Source: a bacterium (lineage in GTDB: Bacteria > Babelota > Babeliae > Babelales > GCA-2401785). From it: a stretch of DNA of 64,000 bases. Of this stretch, positions 32,386 through 49,526 are shown piece after piece (within the stretch, counting starts at the first letter, position 1; every line of letters starts with the position of its first letter). The position numbers and the translations under genes are program-made. The DNA is taken from NCBI GenBank assembly GCA_023249975.1, contig JAHFBP010000004.1, positions 4,094 through 68,093 on the forward strand. Direction: 5' to 3'. A model generated the notes under the pieces. That model was not told the origin of the DNA. It saw only the letters and a list, made by a program, of their open reading frames with translations, and ran no database searches.

Positions 32386-32621
32386 CCCTTCGATACTATT
32401 TTTCTTGCGAAAAATCACTTCCTCAGTCGCTAAGGCTATGGCGGACAGGCAGGGCATGCGGGTCGTGGGGTGCATGCCGTATTAGTTAAGAAAAAAATGA
32501 GCAGATATTCTGCTGAAGAGAGCTAGTAAATTTGTTAAGTCGCAATGGGGTGGCAGGTAAAAAAATATCATCCACACCCCGCATTCCCTGAGTGTTTTGT
32601 GAAACAAAATGTATCGAAGGG
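32386..32621. repeat. palindromic intergenic repeat pair (long arm 32386-32460, short arm 32580-32621) around a ~120-nt core
   Basis: CCCTTCGATACT...CAGGGCATGCG faces CGCATTCCCTGAGTG...GTATCGAAGGG. The same arms occur at 47.5 kb and 61.0 kb. Confidence 0.85.
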
Positions 32622-32648
32622 TTTGAATTTGTAAAAAATGGAGATTAC

Positions 32649-44108: not shown

Positions 44109-44204
44109 CTTTGTGAAATAGATAAAAAAGATTTCACTTGTTTTATAACTTGGACAGCATATTATGCTGGGAACTTCAAAGAGTGTTCTTTTTGGAGATT
44201 GAGC

Positions 44205-45182
44205 ATGAAATTTAAAGTTGCTATCTTCTCAATGATCATTGCGATTCAGAGTTTGCCATTACACACAGGAGCACTTCTTTCATGTTTTGGTAGGGAGAAT
44301 AAAGCCAAGGCCCCCCTCGAAGAAGTTCTCTTTTGCGACAATATTTTCGTTATGGGGGCTCATTCAGACTATCCTCAGCGAATTCCTGTAAAAATGCAGC
44401 AACAGCCGTGGGCGGTTGAACATCGCACGTATCGTCCATCAGTTTACCCTGAGGGGTGCATGGACAATACAAGTATTGAATATCCCCAAAACCCTATGGG
44501 ACGGACAGGTCTTGCGGGTAAAGGGGTTTTTGAAAATTGGGGCGTCAATCGGGATTTTATTGTGGTGGTTTTTAACCATGGCAAGACGGGAAATATACAA
44601 GTTTTGTCTTTGAGGCTACCGGGAACGGGGTCCTATGTGTTGCCTTCGGGTGCATCACTGGGGGAATATCGCGATCCTAGTTTAGTGGTGAAGGCTGCGG
44701 TCACCATGTTATTGGGATTAGTGCCCCAGAATCCCAGCGATATGAATATGCTGACCAACAATTTTTGGGAGTATGAATATTTTGCAGATTCTCGCAACAC
44801 TGACAATGCATGGGTGGAAGCATGCATTGTGTTTTATGAAATTGAAATTGATGAAACTGAAATATCAGGATTTATCAATGGCCTTGAGCCTCGGTGGCTT
44901 GATGCGCATCAAGAATTATTTTTGTTAAAACATAATTATGCAGAGCTTGTTCGTTTTGTGAGTCGCAAAACGCGTATTATGGCTTTGCAGGGACAATTGA
45001 GTCAGGACCTTGAAGGTTTGTTCAATGATGCAGCAGACGAGGATGAAGGTGAAATTACGCCACGTGATGCAATTTCAAAAAAGAAATCCCCAATGAAATC
45101 TAGACCAATTCCTATTCCAACGCCTCGGGATGAAGTAACTTATATTTTTTTTCATCGGGGATTAGGATCAAGCAAAAAATAG
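44205..45182 (+). CDS. secreted NUDT9-homology (ADP-ribose pyrophosphatase-like) protein with degenerate Nudix box
   Basis: NPMGRTGLAGKGVFENWGVN and ADSRNTDNAWVEACIVFYE parallel NUDT9 [20 protein letters not shown] and DDPRNTDNAWMETEAVNYH. The REFGEE position reads KAAVTM. Signal-like MKFKVAIFSMIIAIQS and a basic C-terminal tail. Confidence 0.65.
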   Translation: MKFKVAIFSMIIAIQSLPLHTGALLSCFGRENKAKAPLEEVLFCDNIFVMGAHSDYPQRIPVKMQQQPWAVEHRTYRPSVYPEGCMDNTSIEYPQNPMGRTGLAGKGVFENWGVNRDFIVVVFNHGKTGNIQVLSLRLPGTGSYVLPSGASLGEYRDPSLVVKAAVTMLLGLVPQNPSDMNMLTNNFWEYEYFADSRNTDNAWVEACIVFYEIEIDETEISGFINGLEPRWLDAHQELFLLKHNYAELVRFVSRKTRIMALQGQLSQDLEGLFNDAADEDEGEITPRDAISKKKSPMKSRPIPIPTPRDEVTYIFFHRGLGSSKK

Positions 45183-45184
45183 AG

Positions 45185-46057
45185 CTATAAATTTTCATGA
45201 CGACCAATTCCTGCCATTTTGCGAAGTCGTGCAATTCTTTCCTTTAATGGGGGATGAGTTGAAAACCAGCTCCATACGCCATCAGTTGAAAATGGATAAA
45301 CAATGAACAAACTGGCTGTTGAGGCTTGAGCATACGAATCAGGGTGATACTTGGTTTTTGAAGAACCTTCAAGTTTTTCAAGTGCTGAGGCAAGAGCAAG
45401 TGGATCGTGACAGGTGTCGGCGCCACACTCATCGGCCAAATATTCACGTGAGCGTGAAATAGCCAATTGAATGAGCATGGCCATAAAGGGGACGAGCAAT
45501 AGGGCGATAATGGTGCCCCATCCACCATCTTCATTATTGCGGCGACGGCCACCAAAGATCATTGACCAGCGCATCCAGTCAGCCAAATAAGCAATGGCAG
45601 CTGCAATGGTGGCAGCAATGGTTCCGACTAAAATGTCGCGATTTTTAACATGAGAAAGTTCATGTGCCAATACACCACGCAATTCATGCGCATCAAGTAA
45701 TTTCATAATCCCTGTGGTGACAGCAACAGAAGCATTTTCAGGATTGCGACCGGTTGCAAAAGCATTGGGTGTATCCATATTGAGTAGCCACAGTTTGGGC
45801 ATCGGCATGCGAGATTGTAACGCCAATTCTTCAACGATATTGTAAACTTCAGGGTATTTTTGTGCATCAAGAGGTTGTGCGCCATACATTTTTAGAACTA
45901 ATTTGTCTGAGTAAAAATATGTAAAAAAGTTCATGGCACAGGCAAGTACGAGCGCAATAATGAGACCTTGTTCTCCGCCAAAAGCATGTCCCATGAAGAG
46001 TAAGAGTGCGGCAAGTGAACCAAGAAGAAAGGCGGTCTTTATGTAATTTCCAAACAT
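45185..46057 (-). CDS. htpX: membrane zinc metalloprotease HtpX
   Basis: HELSHV zinc motif, four hydrophobic segments, C-terminal THPPLKERI. Confidence 0.92.
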   Translation of the reverse strand: MFGNYIKTAFLLGSLAALLLFMGHAFGGEQGLIIALVLACAMNFFTYFYSDKLVLKMYGAQPLDAQKYPEVYNIVEELALQSRMPMPKLWLLNMDTPNAFATGRNPENASVAVTTGIMKLLDAHELRGVLAHELSHVKNRDILVGTIAATIAAAIAYLADWMRWSMIFGGRRRNNEDGGWGTIIALLLVPFMAMLIQLAISRSREYLADECGADTCHDPLALASALEKLEGSSKTKYHPDSYAQASTASLFIVYPFSTDGVWSWFSTHPPLKERIARLRKMAGIGRHENL

Positions 46058-46341
46058 GAGCTACTCCTCATTTTAAAAGAACTTTCATCGTCTTACTTAA
46101 AATGTAAACGTACATGCCTCAAGATGCAAGAGGAATATTCTTTTACCACTGAGTGTTTTTGGGAGCTGCATAATTAAGACCTTAGGCGAGGTGCCTGGAG
46201 ATGAAAAAAGGGTACATGCTGCCCGCCGTATGCATGTCCTTTGAAAAGTAGTTTTGCTGTGGGTCAAGATGAAGGGCGGTCTTTAAGGAGCTTCCAAGGG
46301 GGAATTACTTTTCATTGTGTAAAAATATGAAGCAAAAATTA

Positions 46342-46491
46342 TTACATGCCAGGCTTGCAACCATTGCCGCCTGAACATTTGCAGCTGCAGCAGCTCTTCA
46401 TGTAAAGTGCGTAGATTACAGCAACAGCCAAAACCGCTACCAAAATATTGCACGTCAAACACCAAGGGATAGTCATTCCGAGAAACATCAT
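46342..46491 (-). CDS. small membrane peptide, Cys-rich tail (49 aa), unlisted
   Basis: MMFLGMTIPWCLTCNILVAVLAVAVIYALYMKSCCSCKCSGGNGCKPGM. SD AAAAGGAG lies 6 nt upstream. The peptide has one TM helix. Confidence 0.6.
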   Translation of the reverse strand: MMFLGMTIPWCLTCNILVAVLAVAVIYALYMKSCCSCKCSGGNGCKPGM

Positions 46492-46526
46492 GCCAAACTC
46501 CTTTTATTTAAAAAATAAGAAAAACA

Positions 46527-46688
46527 CTATTTTTTATAAAAATCATCTTTTCGGCATCTGCAAAAACATTGGTATCTTTTGACCAAAACAATTTCAACAA
46601 TTCGCACCAGGCAATTTGCCAAGCAAATAATGGCAATGACGCTGATGATCGGGTGTTGATTAAGAAGAAGAGTAATTGTTTCGTTCAT
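46527..46688 (-). CDS. small membrane peptide, Cys/basic tail (53 aa), unlisted
   Basis: MNETITLLLNQHPIISVIAIICLANCLVRIVEIVLVKRYQCFCRCRKDDFYKK. Starts 21 nt after the preceding peptide stop. Weak SD (AGGAA). Confidence 0.55.
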   Translation of the reverse strand: MNETITLLLNQHPIISVIAIICLANCLVRIVEIVLVKRYQCFCRCRKDDFYKK

Positions 46689-46709
46689 GTTACATATTCC
46701 TAAAAAAAT

Positions 46710-46820
46710 TTACTTTTTACAAGTTGACATGTAGGTGCACCACAAAACCCAAGTTGCTCCAATTGCTCCTATGGCCGTGAGTATTGATTTGAGATTCACA
46801 ATATCACAAAGCACACCCAT
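46710..46820 (-). CDS. small membrane peptide (36 aa), unlisted
   Basis: MGVLCDIVNLKSILTAIGAIGATWVLWCTYMSTCKK. SD AAGGAG lies 7 nt upstream. Confidence 0.55.
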   Translation of the reverse strand: MGVLCDIVNLKSILTAIGAIGATWVLWCTYMSTCKK

Positions 46821-46936
46821 ATGCGTCTCCTTGAGTTGCTCATAGTTCAACGTTAGCTCTTATTATCAATGTTATTATCTTTATTCCGCATATTCTGGGC
46901 AATAGTTTTCTGCTCTTGTGTGCTGCAGGGGTAGCT

Positions 46937-47437
46937 TTAGAGGGAGTCTTCGTAGTCAATTTCCCAGTCAACGGTTTTTGAGCCATCATCTGATGAGTGT
47001 TGATCAACGTTTTTTCTGTCTTCATTGCTTGATCCAGGCTTTGCAAGGGTTTGCTCAGGGGCAGATTTATTTTTTTGGCGTATGTGTAAAAGTTGAGAAA
47101 CTTGGGATTCAACTTGTTGTTTGTATACCTCAGTTTCTGATTCAAGTTGGTCTTTGGTTTGGTCAAAAAGTTGATTAACCTCGCCTTGAAGTCGGGAGAT
47201 TTTTTTTTGTAACTTGAGAATCATTTCAACGCCGGCAAGATTGATGCCCATTTTGTGGGTCAGGTGAATTACTTGTTCAAGAGCATCAACGTCTTCTTCG
47301 GTAAATTGCCGTGTATTGCCAGCAGACCGTTGAGGCGTGATCAATCCCTGTTTTTCATACAAACGAATAGTTTGTTGGTGTACCCCAAACATTTGGGCAA
47401 CTACAGAAATTGAATACATACCTTTTTTACGTTTCAT
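46937..47437 (-). CDS. MerR-family (HspR-like) transcriptional regulator with coiled-coil C-terminus
   Basis: HTH YSISVVAQMFGVHQQTIRLYEKQGLITPQRSAGNTRQFTEEDV. The ATG at 47437 is preceded by GGGGAGGG. Confidence 0.8.
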   Translation of the reverse strand: MKRKKGMYSISVVAQMFGVHQQTIRLYEKQGLITPQRSAGNTRQFTEEDVDALEQVIHLTHKMGINLAGVEMILKLQKKISRLQGEVNQLFDQTKDQLESETEVYKQQVESQVSQLLHIRQKNKSAPEQTLAKPGSSNEDRKNVDQHSSDDGSKTVDWEIDYEDSL

Positions 47438-47511
47438 GCCAGGCCCTCCCCACAATCAATCGCACAGTTTTATAAAATTAACACGAGATATTTATGTCTA
47501 TGCCCACCACC

Positions 47512-47649
47512 CGCATGCCCTGAGTGTTTTGTGAAACAAAATGTATCGAAGGGTTCGGTATTGTACAACTTCAAACCCTTCGATACTATTTTTCTATGAA
47601 AAATCACTTCCTCCGTCGCTAAGGCTATGGCGGACAGGCAGGGCATGCG
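47512..47649. repeat. palindromic intergenic repeat, complete hairpin copy (short arm 47512-47553, long arm 47576-47649)
   Basis: CGCATGCCCTGAGTGTTTTGTGAAACAAAATGTATCGAAGGG, a 22-nt spacer, then CCCTTCGATACT...CACTTCCTCCGTCGCTAAGGCTATGGCGGACAGGCAGGGCATGCG. Confidence 0.9.
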
Positions 47650-47708
47650 GGTGGCGGGATATGTAAATTTCAATTATTTGTGCTTATCTTAGTTAAGTTA
47701 TGCTCAGA

Positions 47709-49526
47709 CTATCGTTTTAATACGCTCAAAAAAGCTTCCTGAGGCAATTCAACGTTACCAAGCTGTTTCATCTTTTTCTTACCTTTTTTCTGCTTTTCAA
47801 GCAACTTCTTTTTACGCGTGATGTCACCGCCATACAATCCTGCAATCACGTCCTTACGAACCGGAGATACCGTTTCACGCGCCAAAATTTTGGCTCCAAC
47901 TGCCGCTTGAATAGCAACAGGAATTTGTTGGCGATGAATAACTTCCTTCAGGCGTTCAGTGATATTGCGTCCAATGCTGATTGCGCGGTCTTTGTGCACG
48001 ATGAGTGACAAGGCATCAACGCTTTCACCATTGATGAGAATATTCATCAATTGCATATCCGCAGGTGCATAAGGTGTTTCTTCATAGTCGAAACTTGCAT
48101 ATCCAGCACTGCATGATTTGAGCCTGTCGTAAAAGTCCGTCACAATTTCAGAAAGTGGCAGTGCGTAAGTGACAATGACACGATTTTCATCAAGGTACGT
48201 CATGTCTAATTGTATGCCACGATAGTTTTGGCAGAGCGTTAAAATATTACCCAAATATTCTTTTGGTGTAACAATCGTTGCTTTGACCATTGGTTCACGG
48301 ATTTCAGAAATTCTTTGAACTTCAGGGAATTTGGCAGGATTTTCGACCACCATTTCTGTGCCGTTAGTTAAAGTAATTTCATAAGGCACGGTTGGAGCCG
48401 TTGAAATAATTTCTACATCATATTCTTGTTCAAGACGTTGTTTGAACACATCCATGTGCAAAAGGCCCAAAAATCCACAGCGAAAGCCGAGACCCAAAGC
48501 CATTGAAGATTCCGGTTCGACCGTGATACTTGGGTCGTTGAGTGTCAATTTTTCAATCGCATCGCGTACGTTGTCGTATTCGGTTGTTTCAACAGGATAA
48601 ATTCCTGCAAAAACCATCGGCTTGGCTTTTTTAAAACCAGGCAGAGGGGTTACCGGATGTTTTTTATGATAAAACGTATCACCAATATAGGCTTCACGAA
48701 CGGTTTTCATACCCGTAATGATGTAACCCACTTGTCCAGGCAAAAGTCTGTCGGTTGGTGTTGGTTCAGGGAACATAAGTCCAATTTCAAGAACCTCGTA
48801 GCTGTCGCCTGTATGAGCGGCTGTTACAAGGTCACCTTTTCTGACGTGTCCATCCATGACTTCAATCAAGCAGACAATTCCGCGGTAAATATCAAACCAT
48901 GAATCGAACAAAAGAGCCTTGAACGGCTTGGTATCATCAGCTTTTGGTGCGGGGATTCGGTCAATAATTGCACCAAAAATTTCATCAATACCAATTCCAG
49001 CTTTGGCAGAAGCGAGCAAGATTTCATCTTGTTCAACGCCAAAAGCTTTGATCATTTCTTCAGAAACGCGCTCTGGTTGGGCATTGGCCATGTCGATTTT
49101 GTTGATGACCGGAATAATGGTCAAATCTTGATCGAATGCCAAATAAAAGTTCGCCAAAGTTTGTGCCTGAATCCCTTGTGCTGCATCAACCAAGAGCAAT
49201 GAGCCTTGGCATGCGTACAATGATCGTGAAACTTCGTATGTGAAATCCACGTGTCCGGGAGTGTCGATCAAATTGAGCAAATAAGTTTCGCCTTTGTAGG
49301 TATAAAAGAGCGATGCTGTTTGCGCTTTGACCGTAATTCCGCGTTCTTTTTCAACTTGAAGCTTGTCCAAAAATTGTTCATTTCGGGTCCGTGTTGAAAG
49401 GGTGCCTGCTTTTTCGAGCATGCGGTCGGCCAAGGTTGATTTGCCGTGATCGATATGCGCGATGATCGAAAAATTTCGGATCTTGTCAGGCGTAAATTTT
49501 TCTAAGATTTTAAGATATTTTTCCAT
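47709..49526 (-). CDS. lepA: translation elongation factor 4
   Basis: NFSIIAHIDHGKSTLADR and DTPGHVDF, with a LepA-specific C-terminal domain. Confidence 0.95.
   Translation of the reverse strand: MEKYLKILEKFTPDKIRNFSIIAHIDHGKSTLADRMLEKAGTLSTRTRNEQFLDKLQVEKERGITVKAQTASLFYTYKGETYLLNLIDTPGHVDFTYEVSRSLYACQGSLLLVDAAQGIQAQTLANFYLAFDQDLTIIPVINKIDMANAQPERVSEEMIKAFGVEQDEILLASAKAGIGIDEIFGAIIDRIPAPKADDTKPFKALLFDSWFDIYRGIVCLIEVMDGHVRKGDLVTAAHTGDSYEVLEIGLMFPEPTPTDRLLPGQVGYIITGMKTVREAYIGDTFYHKKHPVTPLPGFKKAKPMVFAGIYPVETTEYDNVRDAIEKLTLNDPSITVEPESSMALGLGFRCGFLGLLHMDVFKQRLEQEYDVEIISTAPTVPYEITLTNGTEMVVENPAKFPEVQRISEIREPMVKATIVTPKEYLGNILTLCQNYRGIQLDMTYLDENRVIVTYALPLSEIVTDFYDRLKSCSAGYASFDYEETPYAPADMQLMNILINGESVDALSLIVHKDRAISIGRNITERLKEVIHRQQIPVAIQAAVGAKILARETVSPVRKDVIAGLYGGDITRKKKLLEKQKKGKKKMKQLGNVELPQEAFLSVLKR

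Follow-up and report, generated by a model that had tools for sequence, protein, structure and literature searches.

Small stress-induced inner-membrane proteins of Escherichia coli are encoded within or beside stress regulons and are often lineage-restricted. Three candidate peptides of similar build, here called p1, p2 and p3, lie between an hspR-like heat-shock regulator gene and the M48 zinc metalloprotease gene htpX on the minus strand of a 64-kb stretch of DNA (contig JAHFBP010000004.1, positions 4,094 to 68,093; referred to as the window) from an uncultured, amoeba-associated Candidatus Dependentiae (TM6/Babeliales) bacterium, the Dependentiae being intracellular parasites of protists. 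Like the E. coli proteins, p1-p3 are shorter than 60 amino acids (aa), possess a single predicted transmembrane (TM) helix and were missed by annotation; they differ in lacking homology, in the unusual Cys-rich and probably cytoplasmic tails and in being known here from sequence alone. Eukaryotic CYSTM proteins are small Cys-rich membrane-associated proteins linked to stress and metal tolerance (PMC2804304, PMC10840359). These are tail-anchored, with the cysteines located in or just before a C-terminal TM segment, whereas the order in p1-p3 is reversed, with an N-terminal TM segment preceding the cysteines; given this architecture and the lack of a Pfam match at E ≤ 1, membership in CYSTM was rejected. 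Arrest peptides such as SecM, MifM, VemP, ApdA/ApdP and CliM (PMC7897499, PMC10987492, PMC13183943) are encoded by small upstream open reading frames (ORFs) with an N-terminal membrane or signal segment and, like p1-p3, adjoin a membrane-biogenesis or quality-control gene and show patchy, lineage-specific distributions, however, the gene downstream of p1-p3 is htpX and not a sec or yidC gene. At most, p1-p3 appear comparable to generic small membrane proteins of stress operons, among which they would be orphans.

The hspR-like gene (46937..47437, minus strand) encodes a 166-aa MerR-family repressor without any cysteines and with a conserved acidic/aromatic C-terminus (...DWEIDYEDSL). It is separated by 879 nt from htpX (45185..46057, minus strand), which encodes a 290-aa protein with an HELSH motif and is preceded by the Shine-Dalgarno (SD) sequence AGGAG 6 nt before its ATG. 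A preliminary description, made from the DNA alone, had placed three unannotated minus-strand ORFs of 36, 53 and 49 aa in this interval, and all of its coordinates and numbers were reproduced. The p1 feature (46710..46832) comprises the SD AAGGAG (46832-46827), a 6-nt spacer and an ORF running from the ATG at 46820 to 46710, encoding the 36-aa peptide MGVLCDIVNLKSILTAIGAIGATWVLWCTYMSTCKK; a TTG-extended 46-aa version starting at 46850 is also present. The 53-aa p2 (MNETITLLLNQHPIISVIAIICLANCLVRIVEIVLVKRYQCFCRCRKDDFYKK) is encoded at 46527..46688, with a weak SD (AGGA) 9 nt before its ATG. The p3 feature (46342..46503) again starts with AAGGAG (46503-46498) and a 6-nt spacer, followed by an ORF from 46491 to 46342 encoding the 49-aa peptide MMFLGMTIPWCLTCNILVAVLAVAVIYALYMKSCCSCKCSGGNGCKPGM. 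The two strong SDs that had been claimed are thus located exactly 6 nt before the ATGs of p1 and p3. Spacers of 21 nt and 35 nt separate p1 from p2 and p2 from p3, respectively, while the p1 ATG lies 116 nt past the hspR stop and the p3 stop 284 nt before the htpX start. On the source contigs the hspR-htpX interval contains no called gene, in line with the ORFs having been described as unannotated, and no verbatim copy of the peptides was found among approximately 15 billion predicted proteins. The exact HspR and HtpX sequences of the window occur in only a few contigs, all from the same strain. Two other ORFs of the interval were considered and set aside. Neither the overlapping 60-aa frame at 46283..46465, whose coding score is no better, nor a low-scoring 56-aa ORF at 46097..46267 has an SD, a hydrophobic helix or a database copy.

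Each of the three peptides consists of a hydrophobic helix followed by a basic tail. A single moderately hydrophobic helix with the small-residue motif AIGAIGA and a terminal KK is found in p1, while p2 and p3 contain strong predicted TM helices followed by a basic CFCRC tail and a metallothionein-like CCSCKCSGGNGC tail, respectively, both 17-19 residues in length. The tails carry net charges of +2 (p1), +5 (p2) and +3 (p3). Maximum KD19 hydropathy values are 1.62, 2.52 and 2.51 for p1, p2 and p3, and shuffles of their own bases reached the observed hydropathy with P=0.038 for p1, in 0/5000 cases for p2 and with P=0.0042 for p3. The two other frames of the same DNA show no hydrophobicity. Because own-base shuffles rarely match the observed values and the other frames are not hydrophobic, hydropathy is not due to local T-richness. 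All three ORFs thus encode one frame-specific hydrophobic helix as in small single-pass inner-membrane proteins, which supports the architecture proposed in the preliminary description, and p2 and p3 rank among the two to three most hydrophobic of the 248 short ORFs in the 64 kb.

The arrangement of p1-p3 exceeds chance. Among 5000 dinucleotide-preserving shuffles of the 879-nt gap, none contained three non-overlapping ATG-initiated ORFs that reach 36 aa and include a hydrophobic 19-mer, and the same was true for two hydrophobic ORFs with an SD (0/5000). When 632 stretches of 879 nt from the actual 64-kb sequence were inspected, 2 (0.3%) showed the pattern. A 6-mer SD precedes only three of the 248 short ATG ORFs, two of which are p1 and p3, and the form AAGGAG-N6-ATG is identical to that of htpX ribosome-binding sites in relatives, for example AAAGGAGAAAAGCCATG and CAAGGAGCATCACATG. 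The interval itself is the longest of the window to lack any ORF of 90 aa or more. The window is 88% coding with a median interval of 98 nt, and among the five next-largest intervals three (641, 399 and 303 nt) contain tRNA genes. With a GC content of 0.32-0.41, the p-region is close to the window (0.42) and not distinctive, and its interpretation as a compositional island was dropped.

Comparison with related genomes revealed that hspR and htpX form a conserved tight gene pair of Dependentiae. The product of the hspR-like gene contains an N-terminal MerR-type winged helix-turn-helix domain (Pfam MerR_1, 65.5 bits; MerR, 47.7 bits) and scores 103.6 bits against the NCBIfam HspR model NF047375, whose cut-off is 105. 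Its 1773 homologues are mostly from Dependentiae/Babeliales, JGI assigns the name 'heat shock protein HspR' to homologues, and its relatives belong almost wholly to Candidatus Dependentiae/Babeliales (TM6) metagenome-assembled and other genomes, including Vermiphilus. The htpX product combines an M48 domain (Pfam Peptidase_M48, PF01435, 121.6 bits) and N-terminal TM segments with the HExxH zinc site, found as HELSH in the translation, and scores 358.3 bits against NCBIfam HtpX (cut-off 369). The gene following hspR is htpX in 63 of 134 loci, with a gap of less than 200 nt, often 5-30 nt, in 53 of these 63. In relatives, lepA is often found approximately 20 nt upstream of hspR, resulting in a lepA-hspR-htpX order. 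Literature searches found no description of a Dependentiae hspR-htpX operon.

In the other ten of the 63 loci the gap measures 200 nt or more. Nine of these contain ORFs of 72-99 aa, between one and three per locus, which have one or two hydrophobic segments. Such slot ORFs usually begin 3-13 nt past the hspR stop, leave 17-100 nt to the start of htpX and, in one locus (L005), occur as three intact small genes within 861 nt. They represent at least five families that are unrelated to each other and have no Pfam family match, and all ten that were scored appear as coding, with frame 0 being the best of six. The tenth large-gap locus (L087) has a 448-nt GC-rich spacer without a credible ORF. Small membrane-protein genes in the hspR-htpX slot are therefore recurrent, either arising independently or diverging fast. 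The slot genes of relatives (L004/L009; L005/L007/L008; the 90-aa gene of L005; L014/L070; L098; L133) share slot and strand with p1-p3 as well as hydrophobic helices and tight operon spacing, and members of the L004/L009 family also end in a charged tail. However, they are 72-99 aa long, mostly contain two TM segments, are not Cys-rich and have clearly coding scores, and they usually start 3-13 nt past the hspR stop as compared with 116 nt for p1. The recurrence of small membrane-protein genes in the slot raises the prior for p1-p3 being real. The conserved pair and the other lineages with small membrane-protein genes in the slot also lend weight to the stress module suggested in the preliminary description.

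HspR C-termini in Dependentiae (alignment A1) share the motif D-[WL]-[EK]-I-D-Y-E-[DE], and two slot proteins (L004:4322-4579 and L009:5498-5797) end in the HspR-like sequence F-D-[VT]-[DE]-[YF]-E-E. This likeness hints at a common binding partner, with the small protein possibly acting as a membrane-anchored decoy. In five loci (L030, L075, L095, L101 and L124), from lineages in which htpX does not come after hspR, hspR is followed by a gene for a conserved soluble protein of approximately 145 aa (…QLTISYELLYLMQWLLENEP…WKP.KK), so that this HspR family has a second recurrent partner.

We hypothesize that p1-p3, or at least p1 and p3, are genuine small inner-membrane proteins that are specific to this lineage and co-expressed with hspR, and put the probability of this at about 0.5. 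The 879-nt split of the hspR-htpX pair would then carry three orphan genes for single-pass inner-membrane proteins, each with a short uncharged N-terminus, one TM helix and a basic, Cys-containing C-terminal tail. Following the positive-inside rule, insertion would be N-out/C-in, which would place the CFCRC and CCSCKC tails at the reducing cytoplasmic face of the membrane. Judging from position, transcription may extend into them from hspR or begin at a weak promoter shortly ahead of p1, where a consensus scan returned a weak promoter-like site (TTGCCC-17-GATAAT, 46874..46902, minus strand) in the interval between the hspR stop and p1; the number of promoter-like sites in the region equals shuffle expectation. 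The peptides would then be made together with the heat-shock regulator and may, given their position and architecture, serve as accessory membrane components of the stress module. As such they could modulate membrane proteostasis or be among its clients, and the thiolates of their tails could bind metal or sense oxidation, however, any role of p1-p3 in metal or redox sensing, as toxins or as HtpX substrates is speculation. A metal-sensing operon is argued against by the neighboring MerR protein, which is cysteine-free and HspR-type.

Type I toxins are typically small, have one TM helix and carry charged residues at the C-terminus. Given these shared traits, p1-p3 might be small toxic peptides of the membrane, similar to type I toxins or holins, forming a selfish or stress-induced cassette whose toxicity is limited by HtpX or another membrane protease. 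A link to membrane proteases has precedent in RseP, which is documented to degrade small membrane proteins including the toxin HokB (PMC10470546); such toxins are, like p1-p3, small hydrophobic peptides with some cysteines. The active sites of HtpX and FtsH, however, are cytoplasmic and poorly suited to substrates with tiny extramembrane parts (PMC10470546), which speaks against such a cassette and also tempers the idea that p1-p3 are HtpX substrates, though the tails of p2 and p3 do reach 17-19 residues. Three distinct peptides in tandem within an operon are atypical of type I toxins, no PHROG or Pfam toxin or holin family was matched, and a consensus scan for antisense signals on the plus strand at 46342-46850, which cannot exclude a small RNA, returned no promoter-like or terminator-like site. 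We consider a toxin cassette distinctly improbable.

Several results weigh against p1-p3 being functional genes and bear on a second interpretation, in which the 879-nt interval is a decaying or rearranged spacer and p1-p3 are fortuitous ORFs or relics of longer small membrane-protein genes. Such relics would have kept the SD and first TM helix and then shifted frame, the Cys-containing tails being out-of-frame read-out before a premature stop. Coding potential was assessed with a second-order, three-periodic Markov model. Trained on the 41 long ORFs of the window, the model assigned the correct frame to 97% of real 45-codon chunks and to 85% of leave-one-out TM-containing chunks. The scores per codon were -0.07 bits for p1, -0.08 bits for p2 and -0.11 bits for p3. 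Over 95% of all real chunks score higher than this, and among TM chunks the three values rank between the 7th and the 19th percentile. They fall in the top 13-20% of short spurious ORFs. None of the three has its own frame as the clear best among six, and likelihood ratios against simulated TM-like random ORFs are below 1 throughout (p1 0.60, p2 0.27, p3 0.20), as expected for decay. In sliding windows, all three ORFs outscore the other sense frames over the half that encodes the helix, while a different frame outscores the Cys-rich tail of p2, also as decay would have it, and no frame scores in the p3 tail. Overall, coding statistics for p1-p3 are equivocal to negative.

Cys-richness is a statistical hallmark of non-coding frames in this genome. 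Cysteine makes up 1.4% of real window proteins compared with 4.1% of out-of-frame translation, and at least three cysteines in 17 aa are approximately 27 times commoner out of frame than in real window proteins. Clusters of at least four cysteines occurred in none of 16,900 real-protein windows. These numbers fit tails that result from off-frame translation, for which a direct precedent exists in the same slot. The 72-aa ORF of a related locus (L020:5631-5874) encodes a helix followed by ...SFSNCGRCVSIYFRYC and derives by frameshift from a gene that is intact in another locus (L098:4631-4876), where it encodes 81 aa with two helices, so that its combination of helix and Cys-rich tail is demonstrably a frameshift artefact with the tail out of frame. 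Two further points of comparison in the slot that agree with decay are the ORF-less 448-nt spacer of L087 and the three intact small genes of L005, which occupy a gap of similar size.

Homology searches likewise provided no support for p1-p3, although protein databases are a weak test here, as small ORFs are seldom called. There was no match in the Pfam, NCBIfam and PHROGs family libraries or in the PDB, no homologue was found by word-indexed search of 5.8 billion clusters, and exhaustive phmmer against 1.84 billion representatives returned no true homologue of p2. The sole phmmer match, P0121, was rejected, being a 2792-aa repetitive protein whose score is the sum of six weak repeat matches. 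Searching 134-136 related loci with p1-p3 (tblastn) and with the entire gap (tblastx) gave no match, and no paralogues exist elsewhere in the 64-kb window. The nearest full-length HspR among approximately 15 billion proteins is only about 61% identical, meaning that no close relative is available, and the hspR-htpX slots of these nearest relatives hold different small genes or none. A first scan of genome contigs with HtpX gave no closer relative. Two further candidates, P0054 (78% identity, N-terminal domain only) and P0020, stand in different or gap-less contexts. Comparison of p1-p3 with the slot proteins of relatives yielded best P values of 0.006-0.01 among 27 hydrophobic-segment comparisons, which is not significant.

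Regulatory signals add to the case against. The HspR-associated inverted repeat (HAIR) operator CTTGAGT-N7-ACTCAAG is absent near the locus at up to 3 mismatches, chaperone promoters lying outside the window, and a relaxed pattern was found just once in 136 loci, at a site distant from hspR. The HspR control of the peptides proposed in the preliminary description is thus without an operator in the window locus or in relatives and is inferred from position only. Further, signs of junk accumulation are visible at the locus in the form of a partial htpX duplicate and a palindromic repeat upstream of hspR.

The htpX duplicate is a decayed copy of the htpX 5' region (46223..46325, minus strand) which comprises the ribosome-binding site and the first approximately 27 codons, begins 16 nt past the p3 stop and is itself a mark of decay within the interval. 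It was recognized as a 61-nt ungapped direct repeat with 70% identity, with gapped local alignment of 46297-46223 to 46053-45975 scoring 41 as compared with a shuffle maximum of 24. The SD has changed from GAGGAG to GAAAAG and the ATG to CCC, indels are present, and the relic frame retains a weakly positive coding score. The relic start is located approximately 40 nt past the p3 stop, a typical operon spacing, and 244 nt upstream of the real htpX start. Based on this position, htpX once directly followed p3 and was later displaced by a 244-nt duplication or insertion. The spacer also contains a terminator-like hairpin (GGACAUGC...GCAUGUACC followed by U6; 46204..46242, minus strand), however, its predicted fold (-10.7 kcal/mol, z=-1.3) is not significant. 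Contigs from ENA ERZ27297344 and Logan SRR14366769 both start exactly at 46198 while another contig ends at 46255; these breaks flanking the hairpin suggest strain-level structural heterogeneity or an assembly-breaking feature. Due to the htpX relic and the weak terminator-like hairpin in the 284-nt spacer, co-transcription of p1-p3 with htpX, as had been envisaged, is doubtful, while co-transcription with hspR remains plausible by position. No Rfam family was detected at the locus even with a relaxed E-value, and neither the fold of the 284-nt spacer nor any potential RNA thermometer or SD-masking hairpin preceding p1, p3 or htpX is better than shuffles.

A number of observations weigh against a decaying spacer. 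Each of p1-p3 is complete, possessing a start, helix, basic tail and stop, with short spacers in between. Strong SDs are kept at ideal spacing, three such ORFs are never recovered in 5000 shuffles, and no frame of the gap resembles any small protein of relatives in tblastn or tblastx searches. Among available assemblies, just one single-nucleotide polymorphism falls within p1-p3 (46608, a minus-strand G>C in L136). It alters the third position of the Leu27 codon of p2 (CTG>CTC) and is synonymous, though weak as a single data point. The same change would be non-synonymous in an overlapping 42-aa frame. We regard decay as possible, though unlikely to be the correct explanation. For p1-p3 as real genes, the estimate of about 0.5 results from weighing arrangement, helices, SDs, the empty interval and slot recurrence against coding statistics, cysteines, decay and the lack of homologues; the observation itself is real at the level of sequence, and a status of p1-p3 as genes is plausible.

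The spacing of slot ORFs relative to htpX bears on another possibility, namely that they are cis-acting leader or monitoring-substrate peptides (SecM/MifM/ApdA-like) tuning translation of downstream htpX through their membrane insertion. Small ORFs with an N-terminal TM segment are located 17-50 nt upstream of a membrane-proteostasis gene in several Dependentiae lineages and differ in sequence yet share architecture, a patchy and fast-evolving pattern as described for Sec/YidC arrest peptides (PMC7897499, PMC10987492). For p1-p3 themselves such a function is very unlikely, as p3 is now 284 nt away from htpX, three ORFs exceed the need of a leader and inspection of the C-termini revealed no RAPP-like or other known arrest motif. 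Membership among translation-arrest peptides was rejected, with no SD-sequestering fold before htpX in the window and seven relatives being better than shuffles (z between -0.2 and +0.9). As a reading of the slot as a whole, monitoring substrates are attractive, albeit without an arrest motif or attenuator structure.

A broader proposal would treat the hspR-htpX slot of Dependentiae as a dedicated fast-evolving site whose small membrane proteins link the state of the membrane to the HspR/HtpX circuit. The small proteins might act as membrane-anchored decoys or sensors, as hinted at by the F/W-D-x-D/E-Y/F-E-E ending that the L004/L009 family has in common with the conserved HspR C-terminus, with the Cys-containing tails of p2 and p3 serving as thiol or metal sensors, or alternatively as nascent-chain monitors of membrane insertion that tune htpX. 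The three peptides would then represent a new Cys-based version of such a module. We consider this proposal improbable.

The cysteines could also point in a different direction, with the peptides being precursors of ribosomally synthesized and post-translationally modified peptides (RiPPs) or bacteriocins, membrane-anchored mini-metallothioneins or host-directed peptides with juxtamembrane cysteines that become palmitoylated in an amoebal host. The CCSCKCSGGNGC tail resembles metallothioneins as well as viral and eukaryotic palmitoylation motifs, and an intracellular lifestyle in protists would provide a suitable host. However, no maturase genes (radical SAM, LanM, YcaO) are found nearby, a nearby ABC transporter lacks a C39 peptidase domain, the N-terminal segment is a membrane anchor and not a leader, and the adjacent MerR protein is no metal sensor. 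No metallothionein, SCIFF or CYSTM family was matched at E ≤ 1. Membership in RiPP precursor families (SCIFF/ranthipeptide, lanthipeptide, thiopeptide) was rejected due to the lack of a family match and of an adjacent maturase (radical SAM, LanB/C/M or YcaO), and membership among metallothionein or SmtA-like proteins because similarity is confined to the CCSCKC motif, without a Pfam, NCBIfam or PDB match. All of these roles have little probability.

Neighbors within approximately 8 kb on each side are argS, lepA, a NUDT9-like gene, maf, an ABC exporter, dprA, PBP2 and proteins of unknown function. The lepA gene (49526..47709, minus strand) is followed by a 271-nt spacer before the hspR-like gene. 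Most of this unusually long spacer is occupied by a nested-palindrome repeat (47503-47658) with the core CCCTTCGATAC...ACACTCAGGGCATGCG-loop-CGCATGCCCTGAGTGT...GTATCGAAGGG, which folds strongly as RNA (z=-8.1). Further copies with approximately 94% identity are located at 32386-32623 and 61000-61100, in the yebC/yicC and mreC/amidase spacers, and the core 'cccttcgatac' is also found in hspR-htpX spacers of distant Dependentiae (L087:4486-4934 and L118:4462-4552). The repeat has no Rfam match and looks like a repetitive extragenic palindrome or miniature inverted-repeat transposable element (REP/MITE-like) of the phylum. A 327-aa protein encoded convergently with htpX (44199-45182, plus strand) shows a weak precomputed match to the NUDT9 N-terminal domain (PF25969), absent from the Pfam scan, and may be a eukaryote-like protein in a protist-associated bacterium.

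For the mining of small ORFs, our results carry the caution that a TM helix followed by a Cys-rich tail can mark frameshifted or non-coding sequence. If real, p1-p3 would mean that the stress circuitry of this poorly known obligate-intracellular phylum also includes orphan small membrane proteins. The wider result, a conserved Dependentiae hspR-htpX operon with unrelated small membrane-protein genes repeatedly found in between, may matter more, and the phylum-wide operon with its variable slot is a firmer outcome than p1-p3 themselves. This slot offers a natural comparative system for relating small membrane proteins to membrane quality control and heat-shock regulation.

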